64,000 bases of DNA. It comes from an uncultured Gammaproteobacteria bacterium (GTDB lineage Bacteria > Patescibacteriota > Patescibacteriia > Magasanikbacterales > UBA922). The stretch is from contig CAZTEU010000001.1 of NCBI GenBank assembly GCA_964612105.1, forward strand, positions 4,047 to 68,046, in the 5' to 3' direction. The position numbers and the translations under genes are program-made. Shown here piece by piece: positions 2,528-56,237 of the stretch (position 1 is the stretch's first letter; each line of letters opens with the position of its first letter). Under the pieces are notes generated by a model. It ran no database searches and was not told where the DNA came from. It saw nothing but the letters and a program-made list of their open reading frames with translations.

Positions 2528-2854
2528 TTAATTATTTAGTTTTGACTCACCGGAGACCAACCTAGACGCGCGTTTGCGTTTTGGTTGGTCTCCGGTTCGT
2601 CAGAGTCTCCTTTCGTTGCGTGACAACTAGCTAGTGTCAGGGGCATAGCGGAGGTACATGATGTACTTTTGATGTCGTTACCGACTCTGGTGTGATAGCT
2701 CTACCCTACGGGAGGGTAAGAGTTATGTGCGCCAGGGGGTCACGCGACCCTTCATGCTGTTCTCCAGGTGTAGCATGGTTTGTGCACGCGGATGTGCTAT
2801 AGGCAAGCTTGGCTGGGAAAGTATAGCACAAAATAGTCGCTATGTCAAGGTCTT
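2528..2854 (+). ncRNA. GC-rich highly structured noncoding element (candidate ribozyme, intron or sRNA) between the two comEC halves
   Basis: 327 nt at roughly 55% GC against about 35% in the flanks. A 14-bp perfect stem CCGGAGACCAACC...GGTTGGTCTCCGG with a 20-nt loop. A long-range CAGAGTC/GACTCTG pairing. The GTACATgATGTAC and GGGTCacgcGACCC hairpins. An 8-bp GTGCTATA/TATAGCAC stem. No ORF. Confidence 0.4.
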
Positions 2855-3739
2855 ATGAGTGATAAAATAGAAAAAATAGCTTATTTTAGCCTAATTCTAC
2901 TAATTGTGGTTTTGGTCCTAATTTGGTTTATAAGGGAAAAACAGCCTGTGGATAACTCAAATATGCTAAAAATCACTTTTTTGGATATTGGACAGGGTGA
3001 TGCTACATTTATTGAATTTCCTAGCGGTGAACAGATGTTAATTGACTGTGCGATAGACGCTGTGGTTGTGGAAGCACTTGGTCGAACTATGGATTTTTAT
3101 GATAGGACAATTGATTATCTTGTTGTAACGCATCCAGACTTAGATCACTACGGTGGGTGTGCAGATGTTCTATATCGTTTTAATATTAAACATATTATTT
3201 ATAATGGTTTTCAGAAACCAAATAGTGGAGTGTGGAATGGATTTATGGATGCAGTAGAAAAAGAAATAGACCAGGGTGCCGAATATATAATTGCAGATAA
3301 TGTTTTTGATTTGAAAGTTGATGATGTGTACATTTCCTATTTGTTTCCAGACAGGCCTGTAGATGTGGAGGATACAAATAACAATACCTCAATTGTAATG
3401 CGTATAAGTTATGGCGAGCAGGATGTGTTATTAACTGCTGATGCTGAAAAAGAGTTAGAACAATATCTTGTCGATGTCTATGATAATGAGCTGGATGTCG
3501 AAATATTAAAAGTTGGACACCATGGCTCATTAACATCTAGTATTTTAGAATTCCTGGGAGTTACATCGCCAAAGGATGCGATAATATCTTCTGGTGAAGA
3601 AAATAATTTTGGACATCCATCTGCTCGTATTATTAAGAGAATTGAACGTAAAGGTGTAAACATTTGGCGAACAGACCAACAAGGTGATATAATAGCTGAG
3701 ATTTATCCACAATTATATACAATCAACTCAAGTAAATAA
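2855..3739 (+). CDS. comEC: ComEC C-terminal part: transmembrane helix plus metallo-beta-lactamase domain
   Basis: ITFLDIGQGDA and VVTHPDLDHYGG MBL motifs, as found in the ComEC C-terminal domain. Same reading frame as 1082..2527. Confidence 0.8.
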   Translation: MSDKIEKIAYFSLILLIVVLVLIWFIREKQPVDNSNMLKITFLDIGQGDATFIEFPSGEQMLIDCAIDAVVVEALGRTMDFYDRTIDYLVVTHPDLDHYGGCADVLYRFNIKHIIYNGFQKPNSGVWNGFMDAVEKEIDQGAEYIIADNVFDLKVDDVYISYLFPDRPVDVEDTNNNTSIVMRISYGEQDVLLTADAEKELEQYLVDVYDNELDVEILKVGHHGSLTSSILEFLGVTSPKDAIISSGEENNFGHPSARIIKRIERKGVNIWRTDQQGDIIAEIYPQLYTINSSK

Positions 3740-3741
3740 TT

Positions 3742-5148
3742 ATGAAAAAAGCATTATTTTTTGGAGTAGTCTTTTCGTTTCTTATTCTCATAGGTTCTGC
3801 TTCTGCTGAATCTTTTAATTTTTGGGTAAGTAACAACATACTCCTATCTCCAGGTGAGCATTTTGCCGGTGATACAGTAAACGTATACACTGTTGTTGTT
3901 AATAACAACTTTGATAATTTGACTTCTAAAGTGGAATTCCTAAACCATGGAAAAGTTATAGGTAGTACTTCTGTGTCTAATCTAAGTTTTGAAGAAGCAA
4001 AGCAAGTAAAAATAGGATATAAACTACCCGCAGGAAAACAGGAGTTTGCAGTACGCCTTTCTAATGTGCGTGTAGTAGAAGACAGCTCATCAAGATCTTT
4101 GTCATCTGAAGAGGTGGCAACATTTGATTCACAAGCAGTTTTTGATATAGATATTGACACAGATAATGACGATATTGGTGATAAGAAAGATCCTGATGAT
4201 GATAATGATGGGCTTAGTGACTCAGAAGAATATGAAATTGGATCTGACAAAAAGAAGGTAGACACAGATGGGGACACAATAAATGACAAGATTGAGGTAG
4301 ACAGAGGTCTAGATCCTACGAAATCAGATACAGATGGGGATGGTGTAAAGGATAATAAAGACCTGTTCCCAATCGACAAAGGAGAATGGGTTGATGCAGA
4401 TGGAGATGGAATTGGTGACAACAGCGATCCAGATGATGATAATGATGGATTAAGCGATAAAGATGAAAAGAAGTTGGGCAGTGATCCACACAAGGCAGAC
4501 ACAGATGGTGACGGGTTAAGCGACTCTGAAGAGAAAAAATATGGTAGCAGTCCTACAAAATCTGACACGGATGGTGATGGTATAGATGATAAGACGGAAG
4601 TTGCCAATAAGACAAATCCAGCAAATGCTGATTCAGACAATGATGGACTTAGTGACTCACAGGAAGTTCAATACAAGACAGATCCAAATAATAAGGATTC
4701 AGATGGTGATGGACTTAATGATGGAGAGGAGATAAAAAAAGGAACCAATCCTCTCAAAGAGGATTCAGATGGTGATGGTGTTCCAGATTTGACTGATATG
4801 TTTCCTTTAGATGAGAATGAGTCTGTCGATACAGACTTGGATGGAATAGGGAATAACGCAGATGAAGATGATGACAATGATGGACTAAGTGATAAAGAAG
4901 AGGAAGAGAAGGGGACAGATCCATTACTTTCAGATACAGATGATGATGGTGTTTCTGATGCTGATGAAGTGAAAGATGGGACAGACCCGCTAGAAGGGGA
5001 CACAGATGGAGATGGAACGAAGGACTCAAAAGATGATGATCCTTTGGTTCCTTCCAAGTTTAATAAAAAGCGTGCGGTCGGAATTGGGGCGTTAATCTCA
5101 TTTATACTAGCTGTTGGATTCTACGGAGCATATAGCGTTAAGAAATAA
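3742..5148 (+). CDS. Secreted Ca-binding protein with about 14 thrombospondin type-3-like repeats and a C-terminal TM anchor
   Basis: Signal peptide. Repeated DxDxDGxxDxxE / DTDGDG motifs. Ends in the hydrophobic helix AVGIGALISFILAVGFYGAYSVKK. Confidence 0.6.
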   Translation: MKKALFFGVVFSFLILIGSASAESFNFWVSNNILLSPGEHFAGDTVNVYTVVVNNNFDNLTSKVEFLNHGKVIGSTSVSNLSFEEAKQVKIGYKLPAGKQEFAVRLSNVRVVEDSSSRSLSSEEVATFDSQAVFDIDIDTDNDDIGDKKDPDDDNDGLSDSEEYEIGSDKKKVDTDGDTINDKIEVDRGLDPTKSDTDGDGVKDNKDLFPIDKGEWVDADGDGIGDNSDPDDDNDGLSDKDEKKLGSDPHKADTDGDGLSDSEEKKYGSSPTKSDTDGDGIDDKTEVANKTNPANADSDNDGLSDSQEVQYKTDPNNKDSDGDGLNDGEEIKKGTNPLKEDSDGDGVPDLTDMFPLDENESVDTDLDGIGNNADEDDDNDGLSDKEEEEKGTDPLLSDTDDDGVSDADEVKDGTDPLEGDTDGDGTKDSKDDDPLVPSKFNKKRAVGIGALISFILAVGFYGAYSVKK

Positions 5149-5150
5149 TT

Positions 5151-5840
5151 ATGAAAAAAAGGATTATAATTTCCGTAGGTGGTTCTATTGTTATTCCAAC
5201 AACAGGTTTTAATGTCTCTTTTCTAAAGAAATTTCGTCAATTAATAATAAAACATGTAAAAAAAGGGAATGAGTTTATCCTAGTAATAGGGGGTGGTTCT
5301 ACATGCAGGGACTATCAGCAGGCAGCAAAAAAGGTTCAACCAAAACTATCAGATAAGGACTTGGATTGGATAGGTATTCACACAACACGATTTAATGCAC
5401 AGTTTGTAAGATACCTATTTAAAGACATTTCTGCAGAGGAAATTATCACAGACCCACATAAGACAGTAAAAACAAAAAAACCTATAATCATAGGTGCTGG
5501 ATATGAGCCAGGACACTCAACAGATATGGATGCTGTATTGTTAGCCAAAAAATACAATGCTAAAACTGTAATTAATCTTTCTAATATAGATTACGTATTT
5601 ACAAAGGACCCTAGTAAATACAGAGACGCCAAAAAGATAAAAGAAATAGATTGGAAGACTTTTCGCAAAGATATTGTTGGAAATAAGTGGGATCCAGGAA
5701 AGAATGCACCTTTTGATCCTATAGCTAGTAGAGAGGCAGAGAAAATTGGTTTAACAGTATCAATTTTGCGTGGTACAAATCTTAAAGAGGTAGGCAATGC
5801 AATTTCTGGAAAAAACTTTAAAGGAACAATAATAAAATAA
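5151..5840 (+). CDS. pyrH: Amino-acid-kinase family protein, archaeal-type UMP kinase-like
   Basis: IISVGGSIV...LVIGGGSTCRDY...DWIGIHTTRFNAQF matches the archaeal UMPK pattern (GGSV...GGG.AR.Y...IGI..TRLNA). Confidence 0.55.
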   Translation: MKKRIIISVGGSIVIPTTGFNVSFLKKFRQLIIKHVKKGNEFILVIGGGSTCRDYQQAAKKVQPKLSDKDLDWIGIHTTRFNAQFVRYLFKDISAEEIITDPHKTVKTKKPIIIGAGYEPGHSTDMDAVLLAKKYNAKTVINLSNIDYVFTKDPSKYRDAKKIKEIDWKTFRKDIVGNKWDPGKNAPFDPIASREAEKIGLTVSILRGTNLKEVGNAISGKNFKGTIIK

Positions 5841-5876
5841 AAAAATTCCAGACTTATATCTGGGTTTTTAATATAG

Positions 5877-6578
5877 TTATAATTTTGTAAACCTAAGCTT
5901 AATAATAACCAGGAAGAATTCCACTATATCTTTTTTTGATAATTTTGACTTCCCCTCTTGTCTGTCTATGAAGGAAACTGGAACTTCACTTATTAAAAAA
6001 CCGGCTTTTTGGGTTCTATAGAGCATCTCTTCTTGAAATGCATAGCCATTACTCCTTATTTCATTTAGTTTGATACTTTCCAAAACTCTCCTCTTGTAAC
6101 ACCTAAAACCAGATGTAACATCCTTTGCCTTTAGACCAAGTAGTGTCCTTGAAAGCCACATGGCTCCATTACTCATGAATTTTCTTATCCAACCCCACCC
6201 AATTATTCTACCCCCCTCAATTTTCCGCGAACCTATCACTAAATCGTAATCATTTCCTGTCTTATACAGTAGGGGAATGTCATCTGGATCATGTGAAAAG
6301 TCTGCATCCATTTCAAATATATGAGTGGCTCCAATGTCTAGAGCACGTCTAAATCCAGCAATATATGCAGATCCGAGCCCAAACTTACCTTTACGCTCTA
6401 TTAAGGAAACTGGATACTGAGCCTGTAATGACTTAACAACATTAGCTGTACCATCTGGTGAGCTATCATCTACAACAATTATTTCAAGATTTTCAACTCC
6501 ATTAGAAAAAATTCTAGTAATCAGTTTACCTATATTGTCTCTTTCATTATAAGTTGGTATAACTATAATTGGCTTCAC
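5877..6578 (-). CDS. GT2-family polyprenyl-phosphate glycosyltransferase (Dpm1/GtrB-like)
   Basis: PTYNERDNIGKL...IIVVDDSSPDGT, a DxD glycosyltransferase-2 N-terminus. Confidence 0.75.
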   Translation of the reverse strand: MKPIIVIPTYNERDNIGKLITRIFSNGVENLEIIVVDDSSPDGTANVVKSLQAQYPVSLIERKGKFGLGSAYIAGFRRALDIGATHIFEMDADFSHDPDDIPLLYKTGNDYDLVIGSRKIEGGRIIGWGWIRKFMSNGAMWLSRTLLGLKAKDVTSGFRCYKRRVLESIKLNEIRSNGYAFQEEMLYRTQKAGFLISEVPVSFIDRQEGKSKLSKKDIVEFFLVIIKLRFTKL

Positions 6579-8331: not shown

Positions 8332-9189
8332 ATGACATATCATAGAGCTTTATTGCAGAGAAGCTCAACAAAAGTATGGCTTGTTGCTGTACTTATAGCC
8401 TCTGCTTTAATTATGTTGCTACCTATGGCTTCTGCCTCAGCAGCAACAACAGTAGGAAACAATGTTTCTGTTGGTGGAACACTTGCCGCGACAGGTGCAA
8501 CAACACTAAACGGAGCTGTTACACTTGGTGATGCTACAGGAGATAGTATAACAGTAAGAGGAAGGTTAGCAGCGGATTTAGATCCAAATGCTGATAATAG
8601 TATTAACTTAGGTGCGTTTGGACTAGCATATTCAGACATATATGCATCTGGTACCATTTACCTATCATCAGTGAATGTACTGGAGAATGGAAATATTACA
8701 TTCGGAACAAGTACAAGTAACACAATCACTCCAACAGCAAGATTTGCAGGAGACTTAGACCCTAGCACAAACAACGCAAGAGACTTTGGTCTGTTTGGTA
8801 ATGCTTGGAATGATTTATTTGCCTCTGGTACAGTTTACGCTGGAGTATACGAGGGAGTTGCGACGTCCACATTCAACGAACAAAGTGGTGACTACGACTT
8901 TAGAGTAGAGTCAAACAATAAAACTCACGCATTATTTGTAGACGCAGGTAATGATCTTGTATCATTCGGTTCAACAACGCCAAACAGTGAATATGGTATA
9001 GACTTCCACAACAATGGAGCAACAAGTTCAATAGCAATCTCATCAGCTGGGTCGTACACAGGCGGATGTCTTGCAATTGAGATGGTTAATGGGGGATTCT
9101 TATTCCTGTACGCAGACGCAGGGGGTAGATTTGTAACATCGACTGGAATATTAGGAAGTGCAGAAGATTGTACTCAGGGAGACGAATAA
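8332..9189 (+). CDS. Secreted hypothetical protein with two roughly 60-aa internal repeats
   Basis: Signal peptide. Repeat units RGRLAADLDPNADNSINLGAFGLAYSDIYASGTIY and ARFAGDLDPSTNNARDFGLFGNAWNDLFASGTVY. A (TA)7 tract lies immediately upstream. Confidence 0.5.
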   Translation: MTYHRALLQRSSTKVWLVAVLIASALIMLLPMASASAATTVGNNVSVGGTLAATGATTLNGAVTLGDATGDSITVRGRLAADLDPNADNSINLGAFGLAYSDIYASGTIYLSSVNVLENGNITFGTSTSNTITPTARFAGDLDPSTNNARDFGLFGNAWNDLFASGTVYAGVYEGVATSTFNEQSGDYDFRVESNNKTHALFVDAGNDLVSFGSTTPNSEYGIDFHNNGATSSIAISSAGSYTGGCLAIEMVNGGFLFLYADAGGRFVTSTGILGSAEDCTQGDE

Positions 9190-9210: not shown

Positions 9211-10581
9211 ATGAAAAAAATATTAATCATTATAGCTGTTCTGTTGTTTACCCCATCCGCTGCTTTTGCATACAACACTGTTACTGCAGACGATAGCCTA
9301 ATGTCATTCTCTTTATCAGATACTGGAAATACATATACCTTAGGGCTGAATTCAAGAATAGACTCTTTCACTGTGAATAGTGGATCAATAGAACTTACTG
9401 CTGCAGCAAATTCAATGTTTGTTATTACATCCTCGGATAGGAATGATTTTTCCATAGGAGGAAGTAATTGTACTTTACAACAGAGAACCTGTTCTTCATC
9501 TGAATCATCAATTACTGTAGACTGTTTAGCTGATGTAGCAAGTCATACAATTACTATTACACCTTCTGGAACATGTTCTTCAGATGATGACGTAAATTTA
9601 CAAACAGCAGGCGGTGGAGGTTCTTCAGGTGGCGGTGGAGGTGGAGGAGGTTCTTCCTCAGGCTCTTCGGAGTCTTCAGATGAGCCGGCAGCACAGTCAG
9701 TTTCATTCAAGATAGGTTCACCGGTGATATTGAATTTAGCGCCTGGAGTTAGTCACAAAGCGACAGTATCATCCGCAACTGATTCAGAAGTGTCTCTAAC
9801 AATAGAATCAGATCCTATAGATTTGACCCTAGCAAAGAATGAGAGCAAGGATTTGGACACAGACAGTGATGGAAAAAATGATCTTAGGGTACTATATCAA
9901 GGTCTTGACAATGGTAAACCAAAACTTGTGTTTACAGTAATTGCTGTTGATAAGGATGGAGATGCAAAGCCGGTTCTTATCAAGAAGAAAGTGGATGGTT
10001 GTGCTCTAGACAAGGAAACAGCTTACAAGCACAGTAAATCAAGATCTGTTTACTACGTTACCAAGGACTGTACAAAAAGAGCGTTTAAGAATCCAAAAAT
10101 ATTCTTTACCTACTTTGATTCTTGGGGTGATGTAAAGGTGGCTGATAAAACAACACTTGAGGGTATTTCGGATGATGAGTTAGACTTCATGCCATGGGGA
10201 CCAAAATTTGATCCTCAGTACGGAGCACTTGTAAAGGTTACATCAGATCCAAAGGTTTACCTATTACTTGGTACAACAAGGTATTGGATAACTTCAGAAG
10301 ATGTATTTAACACACTAAAATACTCATGGAATTGGATTGAAGACATTGCTGACTCCCTTCTTGCTAAATACACAGAAGGAAGCGAGATAACAGATACAAC
10401 AAAGCATCCAGATCACACTTTGGTCAAGTATAAGAATGATCCAAAGACATATAAGCTTGAGGATGGAAAGAAAAGACATATTAAGGATGAGAAGGCTTTC
10501 GTGAAGCTTAAATACAGATGGGATCGCATTGTGACAATAGATGATAGTGAAACATATCCAGATGGAGAGCAGTTAGAATAG
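9211..10581 (+). CDS. Secreted protein with a Gly/Ser linker and three C-terminal roughly 50-aa repeats (the same repeat family as in 46650..48899)
   Basis: Signal peptide. GGGGSSGGGGGGGGSSSGSS linker. Repeats of the form PK(V/T)Y..G..R..I.....F..LKY.W..I..I. Confidence 0.55.
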   Translation: MKKILIIIAVLLFTPSAAFAYNTVTADDSLMSFSLSDTGNTYTLGLNSRIDSFTVNSGSIELTAAANSMFVITSSDRNDFSIGGSNCTLQQRTCSSSESSITVDCLADVASHTITITPSGTCSSDDDVNLQTAGGGGSSGGGGGGGGSSSGSSESSDEPAAQSVSFKIGSPVILNLAPGVSHKATVSSATDSEVSLTIESDPIDLTLAKNESKDLDTDSDGKNDLRVLYQGLDNGKPKLVFTVIAVDKDGDAKPVLIKKKVDGCALDKETAYKHSKSRSVYYVTKDCTKRAFKNPKIFFTYFDSWGDVKVADKTTLEGISDDELDFMPWGPKFDPQYGALVKVTSDPKVYLLLGTTRYWITSEDVFNTLKYSWNWIEDIADSLLAKYTEGSEITDTTKHPDHTLVKYKNDPKTYKLEDGKKRHIKDEKAFVKLKYRWDRIVTIDDSETYPDGEQLE

Positions 10582-32781: not shown

Positions 32782-32855
32782 TCGGGTGGGCTGGATTTGA
32801 ACCAGCGACCTTGAGCTTTGTAGGCTCACACTCTACCTGACTGAGCTACCCCCCG
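32782..32855 (-). tRNA. tRNA whose apparent anticodon is ACA (it would read Cys UGU); identity needs checking
   Basis: Minus-strand read CGGGGGGTAGCTCAGTCAGGTAGAGTGTGAGCCTACAAAGCTCAAGGTCGCTGGTTCAAATCCAGCCCACCCGA. Anticodon stem TGAGC/GCTCA, loop CTACAAA. T-arm GCTGGTTCAAATCCAGC. Confidence 0.7.
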
Positions 32856-45855: not shown

Positions 45856-46647
45856 TTAGAAAACGAACTGTCCTGTAAGATAACCAACCCCAAATGGATG
45901 TTCGTAACACAACAGCTCAAATTTATGGTTCATGTTATGTAGTATGCCAGAACCGATTAGCATGGTGCGATATCCAGTCTGATCTGCATTCTTTATAACA
46001 GATGGCTTTATTAACAGAAGATCTTCTAGCTTGCTTGTCTGCAATGCTTCTATAACAGCCTCATCGAATACCTCACCATCTTCATGATAGCCACCCGGAG
46101 CATCCTCTGTCAATGTGTGAGATAGTACGCTGGAGATTATTACAGCTATTCTTTTTTCAGATGACAGTATTGATTCCTTCAATAATTTACCAAATTTTAC
46201 GTGTTCTTCAGGTGATAAATCACTAAATCCAATGGGTAAAACATGTACATCACTCATTTCTGACGCTAAAAGATGTAGTGGAACAGAACAACCTAAACAT
46301 AGAGGATCTTGAGAATCTAGTTGTACTTTTACATCGTGCTCACTTGCTTCATGAGCTATTTTTGATGCCAGTACAGGCTCTCCTTTCCAACTCTCTGAAA
46401 CATTTACATTACCAAACGAGGAAAAGTCTGTGCTAAACTCTTCATGAGCATTTATTGTAAATGAATTCTCATGTAATCCAGCATGTGGTGATAGCACAAC
46501 AATAACATCTGGCTTAGAAGCTTCTAATTTTTCCTTAAGTGCTGTAATTGCTTCGTGTGTTTTTGTAAGTTTTTCTTGTTGCTCCTTTCCAATTTCTGGA
46601 ATAAGAAGAGGGGAGTGTGGTATTACTGCTGTGAATACAAGTGACAT
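45856..46647 (-). CDS. LigB-family (class III extradiol dioxygenase / Memo-like) protein
   Basis: AVIPHSPLLIP and VLSPHAG His motifs. Confidence 0.4.
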   Translation of the reverse strand: MSLVFTAVIPHSPLLIPEIGKEQQEKLTKTHEAITALKEKLEASKPDVIVVLSPHAGLHENSFTINAHEEFSTDFSSFGNVNVSESWKGEPVLASKIAHEASEHDVKVQLDSQDPLCLGCSVPLHLLASEMSDVHVLPIGFSDLSPEEHVKFGKLLKESILSSEKRIAVIISSVLSHTLTEDAPGGYHEDGEVFDEAVIEALQTSKLEDLLLIKPSVIKNADQTGYRTMLIGSGILHNMNHKFELLCYEHPFGVGYLTGQFVF

Positions 46648-46649
46648 AA

Positions 46650-48899
46650 TTAGAAATTGTTTACTGCCCAGCGTGCTATGTTTTCTGGTTCATTAAATCT
46701 TATTGAATAATTTGGATTTCCCATAGTAATTATTATAAACTTCTTACCATCTCTATTTCTTTCTACTAGCATCACCAATCCTGCGCCAGCTTCGTCTAGA
46801 TATCCTGTTTTACTTGCGAGAATATTAAATGGCAATCCTGATTTCTTTGTTAATTTGTTACTATTTGTGTCGTAGTGATTTTTTCTTTTATCACTCTCTG
46901 TATATACCTTTTCATATGCGTAGGATGTTGTTCCAAGGTATTTTTTAACATCCGCATTCTTAACAGCCTTTCTAAATATTGTAACGTAATCTCTGGCTGT
47001 AGACTTTGTCTCTAAGCTTTCTCCTGTAACATCTGAGAAGGTTGTGTTGTCTAGCCCCCAATCATCTGCCTGCTTGTTCATTCTCTCTATAAATGCGTTT
47101 CGGTTTGGCTCTACGCTAGACACAGCCATATTTACAGGTGTATTTAGTGACGAAACGAGCATAGCAGAGAGTAGATCTTTGTTCAAGACCTGGTCTCCAA
47201 CACCTATGTTGTATCTGTGATATGTCGCTTTATGCTTGTTTGGGCTATAGCTTACAGAGCTTTGTAACATTAGACCCTCTTTAAAGAGTCTATAAGCTGT
47301 CATAACTTTAGTAAATGATGCAATTGGTCTTACGTCATCTACATTTTTTCCAGCCAATATTTCTCCGGTCTCATAGTCGGCTATAGCATAATTGTTTATC
47401 TGTGTTTCATACTTATTTCCAATATATTTCACTTCTTTTGGGGGAGTACTCCACATCTTTCCATTCTCCACTCTTTCATATGTAATGTTTGATTCTACTT
47501 GTGCAATTTCTGCAGAAGGTACATTTGTATTAATAACCGGACGTTTTAGGTATACTGGTTGACCTGTTTCATGAGCCATTCCTGCAAAGGTATTTATCCA
47601 CACAATATTGTCCCATTTAAATCCTAGACCTGTGAACACGTCTTCAGAAACGATATGCCTCTTTTTACCATGCTCAACAACATATATGCTATTCTCTCCC
47701 TCAATTCCAAATAATGTACCATCTTTTAATAGAACTTTTGGTCCGGAGATAAGTGTTCCTAATGTAATAGCGGAAGCTACCTCAGTCTGCAGTTGTGGGT
47801 AATTTACACTGGCTATACGCTCATCGTAGACTGGGAAGTATTGGTTATCCTTTATGTAATAAAGAGACTGGTTTTCTTTAACACGAACAAGACGACCTTG
47901 TGGATTTGTTGTTGCTGTGATAACTGGACCTTTTGAGTAGTGAGAAATATCTGAGTAGGTTACAGATATAATTTCATCTGGATGATATCCTAACTGACGA
48001 ACCGTATCATTAGACTGGAATGGACGTAACATGTCATCATCTAGTAAATAGTATTTACTACCTTGTTTTAACACTGCATAGTTTGGTAAAGAAATATTTC
48101 TACCTGTCTCATAATTACTTAATTCACTTGTAGGAACCTCAATAATAAGATTCGGATTAAACCTACTTGTTAAGGCAGACATGTTCTTAAATGGATATTT
48201 TATCTTATCCTTTACAAGATAAACAACAGAGTCACCGGTAGCTTTCATAAGAGTCCCATCTGGATACACCTGGTCAAACCACCTCTGCCACAAAGTCCAA
48301 AAATTCTTGTTACCTTGTATATGAGGAGTGTATGTGTATAGGAAAGCTGTGGCATGATTTGCCGGCTGTACAGTATTACCATCTATGGAATATGCAATAT
48401 TAGCTCTCTTTATCCACTTTTCCCTAGTATAGTTATCATAATACCAGCGTATAATTGCTGCCGCACTGTCCACCTGCGTACCCAACCCCCTGTGTTTTTG
48501 TAAACTAGGATCGTTCATGCTACAGCTATCACATATTCCATAACCTGTAGCCCAATCTAATTGTTTTTGTGTAGGAGAATTTTCTGTAACAAGACTCTGC
48601 TCCTTCTGTAGTTTTACAAGAAGATACTTGGGATTAATCCTATGCTCCTTAGATGCTCTAGAAATAATATCTGGGATGTCACGGACATCTCCATCCTTAT
48701 CCGGAACCTTTAGTGTACTAATCGCCCCTCCTTTATCATCCAAAAATGCCTCAATGTCCTCACGATTCATCGAATTATATGCTGTCATCTCTTCATCCGA
48801 GATAAGATAATTGGGATTAAAATCCTCTTCACCAAGAGTAAGAGAGGGAGACAGAACGAGTCCCAAAACCAGAATACTTAAAAAATATTTTGAATTCAT
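46650..48899 (-). CDS. Secreted D-Ala-D-Ala carboxypeptidase (S11 / PBP5-like) C-terminal domain fused to four N-terminal roughly 55-aa repeats
   Basis: ASFTKVMT (SxxK), SSLN (SxN) and KTGY motifs. N-terminal repeats such as SIYVVEHGKKRHIVSEDVFTGLGFKWDNIVWIN. Confidence 0.7.
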   Translation of the reverse strand: MNSKYFLSILVLGLVLSPSLTLGEEDFNPNYLISDEEMTAYNSMNREDIEAFLDDKGGAISTLKVPDKDGDVRDIPDIISRASKEHRINPKYLLVKLQKEQSLVTENSPTQKQLDWATGYGICDSCSMNDPSLQKHRGLGTQVDSAAAIIRWYYDNYTREKWIKRANIAYSIDGNTVQPANHATAFLYTYTPHIQGNKNFWTLWQRWFDQVYPDGTLMKATGDSVVYLVKDKIKYPFKNMSALTSRFNPNLIIEVPTSELSNYETGRNISLPNYAVLKQGSKYYLLDDDMLRPFQSNDTVRQLGYHPDEIISVTYSDISHYSKGPVITATTNPQGRLVRVKENQSLYYIKDNQYFPVYDERIASVNYPQLQTEVASAITLGTLISGPKVLLKDGTLFGIEGENSIYVVEHGKKRHIVSEDVFTGLGFKWDNIVWINTFAGMAHETGQPVYLKRPVINTNVPSAEIAQVESNITYERVENGKMWSTPPKEVKYIGNKYETQINNYAIADYETGEILAGKNVDDVRPIASFTKVMTAYRLFKEGLMLQSSVSYSPNKHKATYHRYNIGVGDQVLNKDLLSAMLVSSLNTPVNMAVSSVEPNRNAFIERMNKQADDWGLDNTTFSDVTGESLETKSTARDYVTIFRKAVKNADVKKYLGTTSYAYEKVYTESDKRKNHYDTNSNKLTKKSGLPFNILASKTGYLDEAGAGLVMLVERNRDGKKFIIITMGNPNYSIRFNEPENIARWAVNNF

Positions 48900-51770: not shown

Positions 51771-52316
51771 ATGGGCATCTTTGACGTTACTTTGCTAACC
51801 ATCATAGCAGGCTTTGGCTTGTTTGGATTGTGGTTTGGGCTAATACACACAATTGGCTCCCTAATAGGAACACTATTAGGAGCATTCCTTGCTGGTAGGT
51901 ATTATGAACCAATGGCAGATTGGCTTGCTGGGGTTACTGGTTGGGAAGGAAATGTACCAGAGGTTGTAATGTTTATTGTTGCGTTTATTGTAATTAATAG
52001 GCTAGTTGGATTTGCCTTCTGGATAATAGATAGAATGTTTAAGGTTGTTACAATTTTACCATTCATGAATTCCTTAAACAGAATTTTAGGTGCTATTGCT
52101 GGTGTTTTTGAGGGAGTAATAACACTTGGTTTAATTCTTTACTTCATAGAAAGATTTCCTTTATCTGAAAAAGTAATGGAAATGATGGCAACATCTGTGG
52201 TTTCCCCAATACTTGTAACAGTTGCTGGAGTTCTTCTACCGCTTCTGCCTGAGGCGCTAAAAGCACTACAGTCTAGTGTTGATTACATAGAAAATATTGT
52301 TCTTGAGCAGATATGA
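51771..52316 (+). CDS. CvpA-family membrane protein
   Basis: Four TM helices with a CvpA-like N-terminus. Confidence 0.5.
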   Translation: MGIFDVTLLTIIAGFGLFGLWFGLIHTIGSLIGTLLGAFLAGRYYEPMADWLAGVTGWEGNVPEVVMFIVAFIVINRLVGFAFWIIDRMFKVVTILPFMNSLNRILGAIAGVFEGVITLGLILYFIERFPLSEKVMEMMATSVVSPILVTVAGVLLPLLPEALKALQSSVDYIENIVLEQI

Positions 52317-54139
52317 GCATAAGGTTGTTAGGTATCCTATTGTCTGTACTATTAATAAATGGGTGTGGTTTTTCACCTTTTTATTTTTCTCAAAGTGCAG
52401 AATTTAATTTGGAATTTAGTAAAGAAAAAGAATACCAGTATGCCGGACCTTGGGATACAGAAATATATGAAGTGTCGTACAAGCGTGCAGAGAGAATAGA
52501 ACCTCTAGCTATCAAAGAAGAAATTAAAGGTGGAATTGTACCTCACCATCTAATGTCAGGACACTCAATTGCGGAGTTTTTTGAAACAATAAAAAAAGAT
52601 AGCCCATCGACAATTGTATTAATTGGTCCTAATCATTTCATGAGAGGGCAATCTTCTATAATTACAACAATGTTAGATTGGAAAACTCCATATGGTGATA
52701 TTAGAACAGACAAGAAAATTACTAATAAATTAGTAAAAGATGGTGTGCTAAAAGTAGATGAGGAAGTTATTAAAGAAGAACATAGTGTTTACTCATTAAC
52801 TAGCTTTATAGCAAGGTCTGTCCCAAAAGCAAGGGTTGTTTCTATAATTATAAAGGAAGACGCAAAAGACGATGAACTAAATAGACTAGTAGACTCCCTG
52901 AAGGAATATTCACCAAAAGATACAGTTTTTGTTGGCTCTATCGACTTCTCACATTATCAGACACCGGAGGTGGCTCAGTTTCATGATGACCTCTCGATTA
53001 ATGTAATTAAAAGTTTTGATTACCCCAGAATTAATAGTACAGAGATAGATTCACATAAGACTCTATACACAATATTAAAATTAATGGAATTAGGAGGGAA
53101 TCAGCGAATAGTAGCAGAAAGACATACAAATTCTGCGCTTGTTGTTGGTGACAAGGGTGGTAAAAATACAACTTCGCATTATATTCCATATTTTGCAAAA
53201 GGCGAGCCAGAAACAGAGAAATCAATTAGCCTCTTATTTTTTGGGGACATGATGCTGGATAGAAATGTAAAGAACAGGATAGATAAAAATGAGGGTGGAG
53301 ACTATCTTTTTAGGGAGCTTGCTGGGATAGAGAATAGGTTTTTTACAGGGATGGACCTAGTTCATGCAAATCTAGAGGGTCCTTTTGCTAATTACAGACG
53401 AGAAACAACAAAAGAAATTGCTTTTCGATTCAATCCAACATTACTTCCAACATTAAAAAAATATAATTTTGATATATTTACTTTAGCCAACAATCATTCA
53501 TTAGATATGGGTCATGCTGGCTTTGCTGAAGGGAAGAAAAATCTAGAAGAATATGGTTTTGATTATTATGGTGAGCAATTAAAAGTTAGTGAAGACAGTT
53601 TACTTACAAAAGAGATTGCTGGAAAGAAGATAGGATTTATTGGACTTAATGATACAAACACTCCGATTAATGAAACTAAAGTTAAAGCTCTTATTAAAGA
53701 CACAAAAGAGAAGGTGGATTATGTAATTATAAATGTACACTGGGGAGCAGAGTATATCCCAACCTCGCAAAAAAGAAGCAAGTATCTAGCACACTTATTT
53801 GTGGATGCCGGAGCAGATGTAATTATTGGGCACCACCCTCATGTTGTGCAAGAAATGGAAATATATAAAGACAAGCCAATATTCTATTCCTTAGGAAATT
53901 TTGTTTTTGATCAGTATTTTTCTATCCCAACTCAACAGTCAATCGGAGTTGGATTAATTCTAAAAAATGAAGATACTTCCGTGTACGTTTTCCCTTTCGA
54001 AGGGGAAGAAAGCCAAATTAGACAAATGCCATATGAAAAAGGTGAGAAATTCATGCAAGATTTTATTGACAAAAGCCGTCTAGATGGATATAATTTCAAT
54101 GATTTTTCACTAAAAATAAACAAATATGAGCAAAAATAA
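52313..54139 (+). CDS. Fusion of Memo-like (AmmeMemoRadiSam system protein B-like) domain with CapA-type metallophosphatase domain
   Basis: GGIVPHHLMSGH...LIGPNHF (Memo-like). LLFFGDMMLDRNV, ANNHSLDMGHAGF and GHHPHVVQE...YSLGNF (CapA/PGA_cap). Confidence 0.55.
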   Translation: MSIRLLGILLSVLLINGCGFSPFYFSQSAEFNLEFSKEKEYQYAGPWDTEIYEVSYKRAERIEPLAIKEEIKGGIVPHHLMSGHSIAEFFETIKKDSPSTIVLIGPNHFMRGQSSIITTMLDWKTPYGDIRTDKKITNKLVKDGVLKVDEEVIKEEHSVYSLTSFIARSVPKARVVSIIIKEDAKDDELNRLVDSLKEYSPKDTVFVGSIDFSHYQTPEVAQFHDDLSINVIKSFDYPRINSTEIDSHKTLYTILKLMELGGNQRIVAERHTNSALVVGDKGGKNTTSHYIPYFAKGEPETEKSISLLFFGDMMLDRNVKNRIDKNEGGDYLFRELAGIENRFFTGMDLVHANLEGPFANYRRETTKEIAFRFNPTLLPTLKKYNFDIFTLANNHSLDMGHAGFAEGKKNLEEYGFDYYGEQLKVSEDSLLTKEIAGKKIGFIGLNDTNTPINETKVKALIKDTKEKVDYVIINVHWGAEYIPTSQKRSKYLAHLFVDAGADVIIGHHPHVVQEMEIYKDKPIFYSLGNFVFDQYFSIPTQQSIGVGLILKNEDTSVYVFPFEGEESQIRQMPYEKGEKFMQDFIDKSRLDGYNFNDFSLKINKYEQK

Positions 54140-56237
54140 ATGGAAAGGTTTTTTAGATATAATTAACGGACAGAGTGATAAGTTAGTTACCTATATCTTT
54201 GCATTTAGTATAGTATTCGTAGTGATTATTTATGCATTGGTAATCCTTGGTATAACTATTGGTAAAACTACAATAAAATTACATTATTTAAAGGATACAA
54301 AGGTTTCTACAGATGATTCTAAAACTTACAATGACGAAGGGGTGGTATTTGATCAATATGCGCTTGAAAATGCAGGAACTCCAAAATATCTTGATTACCT
54401 GAATAATAATAACTCTGGAAAAATATATACAGTAGGCCCACCTATGAGAGGTCAGAATGTTCTTGGTGAGTGGACAGCAAACGAGAATGAGTATAGAGAA
54501 TATACTTTAAAAAGTGATGTTACAGGCACAAGGCTTTCTATTAAAATAGATTGGGAGAAATATGGTAAACCACTCTCAAAGAGGAATATAAATAAAGTTA
54601 TAGAAAAGGTTGGTGGCATTTCTGAGGAAGGTCAGAAGTATCTAGATAATCTAGATACAGAATACGGTGATTGCTATTACGACGAGTTCTTCGTACCAGA
54701 AGACGAAAAGGAGAAAATTAGATGTGGAATAAGAATATGGGAGGCGGGTACAGTTACAGCGCCAGACAAGATTGCTGGAAGCAAAGTATACTATATTGGT
54801 TATACAGTACCAGGGATGGGGGTATTCGAGGAAGTTACTACTGCCTTTTTAAGTGAGGATCTTAATAAATTTGTCTTCTTAAAACAAGGTGGTACGGGAG
54901 AATACGATGCTAACGGGCTAACATACAATATCGCAGCGGCAGAACTTTTTGATGGATATATAACATATAATGCTGAGGAATATTACGACACTCCAGAGAA
55001 AATATTAATTCCCAATACAAACTCCCACCTAAAATACTATGGACAAAGAACATCTCCTTGGGATGTTTTGGCAAAAGATAATGGAAATGACAAGAAAGTT
55101 TTTACAGATTTTGAAGCTGGAGATGTTATGTTTGATGGAAGTTCACACTACACGTACAAGTCAAACGGCAATTCATTCAATTATATATTTGTTCCTCCAT
55201 TTCTTAGTCATGAAGATTATAATGAAAAAGATTTTTATAGAGCAGGATATGTAAGTGATATAGTTTGGAGCAAAAAGGGTGAGAGTAATGCAGAATTATT
55301 TCAGATTGGAGGAGATATTACATATGGCGGATGTTCATCAGGGATAGACTCACTTGACTCAAATATTGTAAATGGAAAGAAATGGTTTGATGAGTCTTAT
55401 TTAGAAGAAGTTGGAAAGACAAAATATGGTGGTGGAATATACGAGTTTGCAGAAAAGTACAGAAAAACTAGTGAGATATATGATGATTTATATAAATTTG
55501 GGATGACAGCTAGGATGTACAGAGAATTAGATCCAGACTTTGAGGACATATCAGAATCAAAAAAACGAGTACTCTTCCAAGAAGACACTCCAATAATATT
55601 CTGGAAGGATTATTTGGGCAACTGGAGATCCTATTACAAAGACACATATCAGACAGCTGCAGAATGTGGGAAACCCGTGATCTATCTTTACCCGGAAGAA
55701 ATAACAGATGTGCGTGTGCAAGTGGAACCAAATGGAGGTTTGACATACGTAGACCCGGCGTATCCAGAGGATGGTTGGTTTGTGCGTGCAGAGCCTAATG
55801 GAACAATATACAATTATGAAAATGACACAGAATATCCATATTTATTCTGGGAGGGTCATGCGGACGGAATAAGTGTCCCAGAAGAAGGATTTGTAATGTC
55901 TAATGAGGAGGTACCAGTGCAGATGAGAGATTTATTAGTGGAGGCAGGGCTTAACAGCGTAGAAACAGAAGATTTTATGGATTTTTGGGAGGATTATCTA
56001 ATGGTAAAACCATACGTGTTTGTTACCTTCGTTTCTCAACGCGAATTTGATATTGCTGTACCACTAAATGTAGAACCAAAACCAGACTATGTACACAGAC
56101 TATTCATGTACTACGAACCACTTGATAGACCTAAAGAAGTAGAACCATTAAGAATTAGTGTCCCAGAGCGCCACGGCTTCTCTGTAATAGAATGGGGTGG
56201 AGGTACTCATCATATAGATATACAAGATGCTCGTTGA
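54126..56237 (+). CDS. Large membrane-anchored hypothetical protein (703 aa)
   Basis: One N-terminal TM helix, then a large extracytoplasmic domain with no recognised motif. Confidence 0.4.
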   Translation: MSKNKWKGFLDIINGQSDKLVTYIFAFSIVFVVIIYALVILGITIGKTTIKLHYLKDTKVSTDDSKTYNDEGVVFDQYALENAGTPKYLDYLNNNNSGKIYTVGPPMRGQNVLGEWTANENEYREYTLKSDVTGTRLSIKIDWEKYGKPLSKRNINKVIEKVGGISEEGQKYLDNLDTEYGDCYYDEFFVPEDEKEKIRCGIRIWEAGTVTAPDKIAGSKVYYIGYTVPGMGVFEEVTTAFLSEDLNKFVFLKQGGTGEYDANGLTYNIAAAELFDGYITYNAEEYYDTPEKILIPNTNSHLKYYGQRTSPWDVLAKDNGNDKKVFTDFEAGDVMFDGSSHYTYKSNGNSFNYIFVPPFLSHEDYNEKDFYRAGYVSDIVWSKKGESNAELFQIGGDITYGGCSSGIDSLDSNIVNGKKWFDESYLEEVGKTKYGGGIYEFAEKYRKTSEIYDDLYKFGMTARMYRELDPDFEDISESKKRVLFQEDTPIIFWKDYLGNWRSYYKDTYQTAAECGKPVIYLYPEEITDVRVQVEPNGGLTYVDPAYPEDGWFVRAEPNGTIYNYENDTEYPYLFWEGHADGISVPEEGFVMSNEEVPVQMRDLLVEAGLNSVETEDFMDFWEDYLMVKPYVFVTFVSQREFDIAVPLNVEPKPDYVHRLFMYYEPLDRPKEVEPLRISVPERHGFSVIEWGGGTHHIDIQDAR

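Follow-up and report, generated by a model that had tools for sequence, protein, structure and literature searches.

Probable EccB-type repeats on a putative two-enzyme cell-wall hydrolase and on a second exported protein of Candidatus Magasanikbacteria

Introduction

EccB proteins (Rv3869/EccB1, EccB3 and EccB5; Pfam family PF05108), core components of mycobacterial ESX type VII secretion systems, contain in their periplasmic domain a repeated unit of 50-60 amino acids (aa), which folds into a four-stranded sheet and two helices. EccB1 contains four such repeats, R1 to R4, of 50-57 residues each (S74-M124, E185-P241, V267-A320 and G391-L445), which pack mutually into a continuous hydrophobic core and for which the authors proposed a structural role (PMC4769845); no ligand binding by EccB has been demonstrated (PMC4769845, PMC6986878). 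Here, we describe repeats that are very probably of this type in two exported proteins encoded by a 64,000-nucleotide stretch of DNA, hereafter the window, from an uncultured bacterium (GenBank assembly GCA_964612105.1, contig CAZTEU010000001.1, positions 4,047 to 68,046; 37.6% G+C). Protein A (749 aa) carries four repeats between a putative lysozyme-like domain and an S11 DD-peptidase domain, and protein B (456 aa) ends in three. The closest relatives of both proteins were found in Candidatus Magasanikbacteria, which belong to the Patescibacteria, or Candidate Phyla Radiation (CPR).

The repeats follow the same logic as the classical wall-anchoring modules LysM, SH3b, CW_binding_1/2, SLH, LGFP and PG_binding_1, which are tandem, usually C-terminal and promiscuously fused, the partners being amidases, glucosaminidases, endopeptidases, proteases and nucleases. 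They have no sequence match to these modules, however, and the EccB-type module sometimes accompanies LGFP or PG_binding_1 rather than replacing it. The EccB fold itself was known and is partly modelled by PF05108; what is new is its free, tandem and mobile form on wall enzymes.

Layout of proteins A and B

An earlier reading of the window, based on its sequence only, had reported the two open reading frames (ORFs) and quoted a peptide from each; both ORFs and both peptides were present. The two proteins start with hydrophobic, signal-peptide-like segments. Their features are given below, with the forward strand as (+), the reverse strand as (-), and bit scores from hidden Markov models (HMMs) for the repeats.

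46650..48899 (-), protein A gene, 749 aa: signal peptide, putative lysozyme-like domain, four probable EccB-type repeats, linker and S11 DD-peptidase (ORF, orthologues, synteny)
48831..48899 (-), aa 1-23: predicted Sec signal peptide or N-terminal anchor, MNSKYFLSILVLGLVLSPSLTLG (sequence read directly)
48267..48830 (-), aa 24-211: putative N-terminal lysozyme-like (GH73-like) domain with motifs K99-E100-Q-S-L and Y-T-Y-T-P-H (AlphaFold, Foldseek and conservation)
48087..48266 (-), aa 212-271: repeat A1 (58.0 bits, database-derived HMM)
47904..48086 (-), aa 272-332: repeat A2 (43.1 bits, database-derived HMM)
47727..47903 (-), aa 333-391: repeat A3, the most divergent copy (11.2 bits; leave-one-out E-value 0.22; model)
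47547..47726 (-), aa 392-451: repeat A4, the most canonical copy, with a GKKRHI motif whose RHI is invariant in orthologues (62.1 bits)
47400..47546 (-), aa 452-500: poorly conserved linker (mean top-residue frequency 0.35)
46713..47399 (-), aa 501-729: Peptidase S11 DD-peptidase domain with S528xxK, S584xN and K697TG (PF00768)
9211..10581 (+), protein B gene, 456 aa: three probable EccB-type repeats, preceded by a signal peptide and by two beta-rich, uncharacterised regions with a Gly/Ser linker between them (ORF)
10012..10212 (+), aa 268-334: repeat B1, divergent, with an 8-aa insertion (21.7 bits, database-derived HMM)
10213..10407 (+), aa 335-399: repeat B2 (71.1 bits)
10408..10578 (+), aa 400-456: repeat B3, with a GKKRHI motif as in A4 (72.1 bits)

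The repeats of the two proteins proved to be the same module, as had been proposed from the sequence, with four copies in protein A and three at the C-terminus of protein B. Pairwise BLASTP aligned about 110 aa of the two proteins (E = 5e-8), with further alignments in shifted registers. Because scoring an HMM on its own training targets is circular, cross-protein controls were used: an HMM built from the B repeats only matched protein A with 51.4 bits (E = 3e-15; best of 500 shuffles, 7.1 bits), and one built from the A repeats only matched protein B with 75.7 bits (E = 6e-23; best of 500 shuffles, 8.3 bits). When the window was translated in six frames, a profile derived from relatives in the database picked out all seven repeats and no further copy. 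The weakest copies by sequence were A3 and B1 (leave-one-out E = 0.0017 for the latter); in the AlphaFold model, the order of strands and helices in A3 was the same as in the other three repeats of protein A. There was no similarity among the repeats at the DNA level, so the duplication is ancient and a recent tandem duplication was ruled out.

Two details of the sequence-only reading needed to be corrected. The N-terminal portion of about 450 aa is not built from repeats throughout, since aa 1-23 form the signal peptide and aa 24-211 a separate, mostly helical domain; and the repeat unit is about 60 aa long, not about 55.

Six close loci of Magasanikbacteria type carried the repeat block of protein B. 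Two of them, L001 (OZ246405.1) and L006 (CAYPPF010000032.1), encoded the closest relatives of both proteins, with 75% identity to the B repeats, and P0002 was 72% identical to protein A. Full-length homologues of protein B were found in Magasanikbacteria, and the protein itself had no Pfam or NCBIfam match.

The part of protein B that precedes the repeats (aa 21-267, 9271..10011 (+)) consists of two Ser/Thr-rich regions around a Gly/Ser run of about 30 aa, likewise unmatched in Pfam and NCBIfam. Directly upstream lies an ORF of 285 aa (8332..9189 (+)) with a signal-peptide-like start, which is also unmatched; its product and protein B may form a pair of CPR surface proteins as yet uncharacterised.

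Relationship of the repeats to EccB

The AlphaFold model of aa 205-460, which covers the four repeats of protein A, had a predicted local distance difference test score (pLDDT) of 90.8 and a predicted TM-score (pTM) of 0.82, and each unit showed the order β-β-β-α-β-α (E-E-E-H-E-H in DSSP). When this model was compared with the PDB using Foldseek, all 11 matches at E ≤ 1e-3 were EccB1, EccB3 or EccB5 (E = 9e-7 to 1e-4, probability ~1), including the structures 7nps, 7np7, 6sgy, 3x3n, 4kk7, 3x3m, 5ebc and 5cyu. The next matches, gelsolin and hemopexin, had E > 0.01. The global TM-score between the repeat model and EccB was low (~0.2) because the EccB repeats surround a central core domain that protein A lacks. 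In EccB, which also carries a transmembrane helix at its N-terminus, a six-stranded core interrupts the repeats (R1, core, R2, R3, core, R4), whereas the repeats of proteins A and B are strictly tandem.

At the sequence level, PF05108 (T7SS_ESX1_EccB; cutoff 27) matched 9 of the 68 diverse family members scanned with Pfam, on the repeats themselves and at profile positions corresponding to EccB R2 and R4. Four of these matches are given below.

P0248, CHAP and five repeats: aa 180-244 on PF05108 positions 183-247 (61.4 bits, E = 8.8e-17)
P0232, Amidase_2 and repeats: aa 566-635 on PF05108 positions 178-249 (31.7 bits)
P0256, repeats only: aa 202-257 on PF05108 positions 188-245 (24.5 bits)
P0252, repeats: aa 285-332 on PF05108 positions 413-460 (17.4 bits)

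The profile built from the seven repeats of the window also matched P0248 (E = 5.9e-52), which thus bridges the homology transitively. Considering both the fold matches and the PF05108 matches on relatives, we regard the assignment of the A and B repeats to an EccB-type repeat domain, together with the anatomy of protein A given above, as highly probable; the module, which had been described as one that could not be named, can thus be given a name.

Two negative results weigh against this assignment. PF05108 matched neither protein A nor protein B, the orthologues of protein A reaching E = 0.055 at best, and the repeat profiles of the window and of the family did not recover mycobacterial EccB chains from PDB sequences. 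More generally, searches of PDB sequences with aa 1-470 of protein A and with the seven-repeat, N-domain and 96-sequence diverse repeat profiles returned nothing credible, and the best matches, a flagellin-hook protein, EF-P and the CARDS toxin, were judged to be noise (E = 0.07-0.5). An attempt to find a plasmid-borne EccB for direct profile-profile comparison yielded Firmicute and archaeal copies of the module instead.

The idea that proteins A and B are themselves EccB or type VII secretion system (T7SS) proteins was ruled out by their architecture, which has no core domain, by gene context and by the lack of a PF05108 match. EccB acts within a T7SS gene cluster, whereas the repeats described here are fused to hydrolases or stand alone, with no T7SS genes nearby: none of the 20 window ORFs scanned with Pfam (neighbours of A and B, and ten ORFs of 461-703 aa) encoded a T7SS component.

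None of the well-known wall-binding domains covered the repeats of proteins A and B in Pfam and NCBIfam searches at E ≤ 1 (SH3b, LysM, PASTA, CW_binding_1/2, SLH, SPOR and PG_binding_1); the match to an established domain that the sequence-only reading had named as its refutation did not occur. PlyCB, the cell-wall-binding subunit of the streptococcal phage lysin PlyC (4F87), was absent from the top 50 Foldseek matches of the four-repeat model, which was the only model compared; it forms an octameric ring of single domains, in contrast to the tandem array found here, and any relationship to EccB-type repeats would be remote.

The P0248 gene (L008 2307..5643, JGI contig Ga0679465_0014718) lies directly downstream of a gene of the CsgG family, which resembles a curli secretion channel. 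Its repeats are parted by long Pro/Ala-rich linkers, as opposed to the tight tandem packing in protein A.

Size, architecture and partners of the repeat family

The seven-repeat profile identified at least 6,430 cluster representatives (50% identity) at E ≤ 1e-3, of which 2,609 were recovered at E ≤ 1e-10 and 375 at E ≤ 1e-30; the first figure is a lower bound on the size of the family. The 142 best members had between 3 and 17 copies per protein, most often four, which is also the number present in EccB (PMC4769845). In 103 of these 142 proteins, no more than 30 residues separated the end of the repeat block from the C-terminus. The following Pfam partners were found in the 68 diverse members.

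Amidase_2: 13
SpoIID: 12
Peptidase_S8: 7
Glucosaminidase: 3
Cohesin: 3
Peptidase_S11: 2
Peptidase_M23: 2
CHAP, NlpC/P60, CAP, SNase and LGFP: 1 each

A peptidoglycan hydrolase domain was present in half of the members scanned individually (15 out of 30). The arrangement of protein A, in which the repeats are placed between two hydrolase domains, recurred as Amidase_2, repeats and SpoIID in P0231, P0241 and P0244. CPR proteins with PG_binding_1, fn3, CAP/YkwD, Big_13, Pur_ac_phosph_N or DsbA domains carried versions of the three-repeat block of protein B that were 50-60% identical to it. A further large homology search with a diverse repeat alignment gave a single hit among 57 candidates.

Copies outside the CPR were confirmed with a diverse-repeat HMM. 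In Brevibacillus, a secreted protein of 184 aa consisted of a signal peptide and two repeats. On a plasmid of Priestia aryabhattai (NZ_CP129010.1, L010), two adjacent genes, both located inside a cluster of the dTDP-rhamnose/teichoic-acid type, ended in EccB-type repeats:

2552..4183 (+) of L010: TagF-like CDP-glycerol glycerophosphotransferase, one repeat (59 bits)
4711..5970 (-) of L010: GT2 glycosyltransferase, two repeats (42 bits)

Both are enzymes of the cytoplasmic type, on which a presumed wall-binding module was not expected. The plasmid pMETHO01 of Methanomethylovorans hollandica (L009 2936..7636 (+)) encoded a PGF-CTERM surface protein of 1,566 aa with one copy of the module (59.7 bits), as well as LVIVD and LGFP repeats. 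The family therefore extends into archaea, which lack peptidoglycan. In addition, the fold search detected the module in small uncharacterised actinophage proteins, among them one of Streptomyces phage LukeCage (TMt 0.78, root-mean-square deviation 2.8 Å, 101 columns), and tblastn of the protein B repeats against annotated phages found nothing.

The S11 domain and the putative second catalytic domain of protein A

The S11 domain of protein A was recognised by PF00768 (Peptidase_S11) with 112.2 bits (E = 3.5e-32; cutoff 27.6). Its three motifs, S528-F-T-K531, S584-L-N586 and K697-T-G699, were present as previously noted from the sequence, the motif then given as SSLN corresponding to S583-S584-L-N586, and the catalytic residues (S, K, S, N, K, T and G) were invariant in all 60 aligned orthologues. 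In these respects, protein A resembles the class C low-molecular-weight penicillin-binding proteins of family S11, such as PBP5/DacA and PBP7/PbpG of Escherichia coli. The same cannot be said of the PBP5-like label attached to it: E. coli PBP5 has a domain II and an amphipathic anchor, whereas protein A has neither, no PBP5_C domain was matched in Pfam, and the chain stops 20 aa past the S11 domain. The best NCBIfam model was that of the PBP7/PbpG endopeptidase (82.6 bits; cutoff 294), which outscored that of DacA (47.6 bits; equivalog cutoff 694). Membership in the PBP5/DacA subfamily was thus ruled out, while the S11 assignment stands. We know of no characterised S11 enzyme with an N-terminal lysozyme-like domain and EccB-type repeats, although our search for one was not exhaustive.

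Hundreds of orthologues of protein A, of about 750 aa and 52-72% identity, were found in Candidatus Magasanikbacteria, all of which matched PF00768. They are labelled in databases as "serine hydrolase" or "D-alanyl-D-alanine carboxypeptidase", and S11 is the sole domain recognised in them. Their best-conserved portion was, however, the N-terminal domain (aa 24-211), with a mean top-residue frequency of 0.75, versus 0.64 for the repeats, 0.63 for S11 and 0.35 for the linker. The repeats of protein A are thus under purifying selection equal to that on the S11 catalytic domain.

The conservation of the N-terminal domain was concentrated in two invariant blocks, INPKYLLVKLQKEQSL and ATAFLYTYTPH..GN.NFW, whose motifs were unchanged in 60 of 60 orthologues. 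The AlphaFold model, based on the orthologue alignment, was mostly helical (pLDDT 93.5, pTM 0.89). Its top Foldseek match in the PDB was Staphylococcus aureus AtlE (4pi7; E = 5e-3, probability 1.0, TMq 0.56), and the other leading matches were pneumococcal LytB, SagB and a Clostridium perfringens autolysin, all of them GH73 enzymes; lytic transglycosylases, a goose-type lysozyme and FlgJ followed. The closest folds are therefore those of GH73 (AtlE 4PI7, LytB 7PJ4 and SagB 6U0O; PF01832) and of GH23 lytic transglycosylases. Glu100, in the K-E-Q-S motif, was invariant and was located at the end of a helix in the model (helix H67-78, with the glutamate at model position 77). In an hhalign comparison with two GH73 domains, which was not significant (E = 0.16), the sole aligned segment placed Glu100 ('..LQKEQS') on the catalytic '..AILES'.

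Unlike the GH73 enzymes, the N-terminal domain had no Pfam match: no family, including PF01832 and SLT, matched it in any of 61 orthologues at E ≤ 1, so that membership in GH73 by Pfam was rejected for these proteins and for protein A. The N-domain profile had no match among PDB sequences, and no second catalytic residue was found. The Foldseek E-value (5e-3) is marginal. On the basis of fold and conservation rather than sequence statistics, we describe the domain as lysozyme-like and GH73-like, with Glu100 as the candidate catalytic residue, and we infer that it is probably active on glycans. As the domain appears to be lysozyme-like and probably catalytic, protein A would be a two-enzyme hydrolase.

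Proposed function and competing explanations

We propose, with moderate confidence, that protein A is an exported two-enzyme wall hydrolase carrying glycopolymer-binding EccB-type repeats. In this three-part peptidoglycan-remodelling enzyme, which would be core to Candidatus Magasanikbacteria, the N-terminal domain may act on glycan strands through the putative catalytic Glu100, while the S11 serine DD-peptidase at the C-terminus would either shorten peptides at their D-Ala-D-Ala ends or cleave cross-links. Together, the four tandem repeats would form a rigid, conserved body that binds an envelope glycopolymer, most likely peptidoglycan in the case of protein A, and that keeps the protein on the wall in an orientation in which its glycosidase and DD-peptidase sites can reach glycan and peptide bonds close to each other. 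The repeats of protein B would anchor an otherwise uncharacterised surface protein. It is from the domain partners of the family that we infer ligand binding and the nature of the ligand, and we rate the role of the repeats as a cell-envelope glycopolymer-binding or targeting module at about even chances. The suggestion of a cell-wall or surface-binding module, made by the sequence-only reading, is upheld, indirectly, to the extent that the module is mobile, usually C-terminal and often joined to hydrolases, but not as regards a strict peptidoglycan ligand: the copies on cytoplasmic-type glycosyltransferases and in an archaeon argue against strict peptidoglycan specificity, and the ligand of the repeats therefore need not be peptidoglycan.

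The principal competing explanation is that the repeats are purely structural, that is, a rigid spacer or oligomerisation scaffold without a ligand, which in protein A would set the distance between the catalytic domains and elsewhere would serve as a stalk or for multimerisation. This would be in line with the structural role proposed for the elongated periplasmic domain of EccB, whose EccB1 repeats share their hydrophobic core, and with the pTM of the four-repeat model, which implies a fixed mutual arrangement. Two features of the family favour it at the expense of wall binding: some copies are carried by cytoplasmic-type glycosyltransferases, a setting in which the mature wall is out of reach, and many of its partners are unrelated to peptidoglycan (subtilase, nuclease, cohesin and GH123). 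If the repeats were just a spacer, however, they would hardly be located at the extreme C-terminus of most of the best family members, with nothing beyond them, or constitute an entire small secreted protein such as that of Brevibacillus; moreover, the strong enrichment for wall hydrolases is a signature of targeting modules. We therefore consider a purely structural role unlikely, albeit the most serious of the alternatives.

An attached life on host cells is commonly assumed for CPR bacteria, and the repeats could accordingly be host-surface adhesion modules, with both proteins binding a host bacterium and protein A digesting its wall. Such an episymbiotic function would fit this lifestyle, the many different secreted proteins that the module decorates in CPR genomes, and the resemblance of protein B, which has no enzymatic domain, to a surface protein. 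We find it improbable, since the orthologues of protein A are well conserved across many metagenome-assembled genomes of Magasanikbacteria, the gene is part of a conserved group of housekeeping genes (LigB/Memo, PriA, Def and Fmt) that fits maintenance of the cell's own wall, a Mur ligase is encoded in the window, and the module is also common outside the CPR, in Firmicutes, actinophages and an archaeon. Even less credit can be given to the original description of protein A as a PBP5-like carboxypeptidase whose N-terminal part is entirely a repeat array of a new family. The four repeats and the S11 motifs are there, and the A and B repeats have no Pfam or NCBIfam family of their own, but aa 24-211 form a distinct helical domain, PBP5_C is missing, and the repeat has a counterpart of solved structure in EccB as well as partial Pfam coverage through PF05108; we hold this description to be very improbable.

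Under the two-enzyme hydrolase proposal, the unannotated lysozyme-like domain makes protein A a probable bifunctional hydrolase. A genome-reduced CPR lineage would then pack putative glycan- and peptide-cleaving activities into one conserved polypeptide, and in these bacteria, which cannot yet be cultivated on their own, cell separation or the turnover of the wall would have protein A as a candidate key enzyme. A broader proposal, which we put forward tentatively and think rather doubtful in its full extent, is that the EccB repeat is one instance of an ancient, widespread and unnamed envelope glycopolymer-binding domain, that the hydrolase fusions are the first functional evidence that the periplasmic domain of EccB engages the wall, and that protein A represents a new type of bifunctional hydrolase. 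If true, this domain family would span CPR bacteria, Firmicutes, actinophages and archaea, with at least 6,400 protein clusters. For the role of the EccB periplasmic domain in mycobacterial ESX secretion, the sole prior clue was a weak similarity to PlyCB; stand-alone homologues of the EccB repeat, often found on peptidoglycan hydrolases, make wall binding by EccB a testable proposal, for which they could serve as soluble surrogates.

As it stands, a family of thousands of members on exported enzymes has neither a name nor a model of its own. Databases either miss the module (proteins A and B) or give it the misleading name of type VII secretion EccB (P0248 and P0232). Annotation of the surface proteomes of CPR and Gram-positive bacteria would gain from a model dedicated to the repeat.

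Genomic context and other features of the window

The gene for protein A is followed downstream by a LigB/Memo-family gene, priA, def, fmt and a gene for a Wzy-type ligase, and preceded upstream by rsmI and metG. The same gene order was observed around a 56%-identical orthologue in another genome. Protein A is a core, vertically inherited envelope enzyme of Candidatus Magasanikbacteria. The ORFs of the window scanned with Pfam included those for DnaK, ComEC, the ATP synthase alpha subunit, a CCA-adding enzyme and a Mur ligase, the last of which indicates that the organism makes peptidoglycan.

The LigB/Memo-family gene (45856..46647 (-)) is directly downstream of the protein A gene, and this adjacency was kept in another genome. 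The opposite strand encodes another Memo domain (52313..54139 (+)), 3.4 kb upstream of the start of protein A, in a fusion with a PGA_cap domain for capsule synthesis.

Among the other features, the ORF at 54126..56237 (+), of 703 aa, had no Pfam match. No standard tRNA-Cys(GCA) was found in the window, which contains a well-formed tRNA at 32782..32855 (-) (Rfam, 64.6 bits) with the anticodon loop CU-ACA-AA, called tRNA-Cys(ACA) by ARAGORN. To our knowledge, bacterial tRNAs other than tRNA-Arg(ACG) rarely have A34; its deamination to inosine would let this tRNA read UGU, UGC and UGA. Finally, an uncharacterised ORF of 468 aa (3742..5148 (+)) was found to encode six bacterial TSP3 (calcium-binding) repeats.

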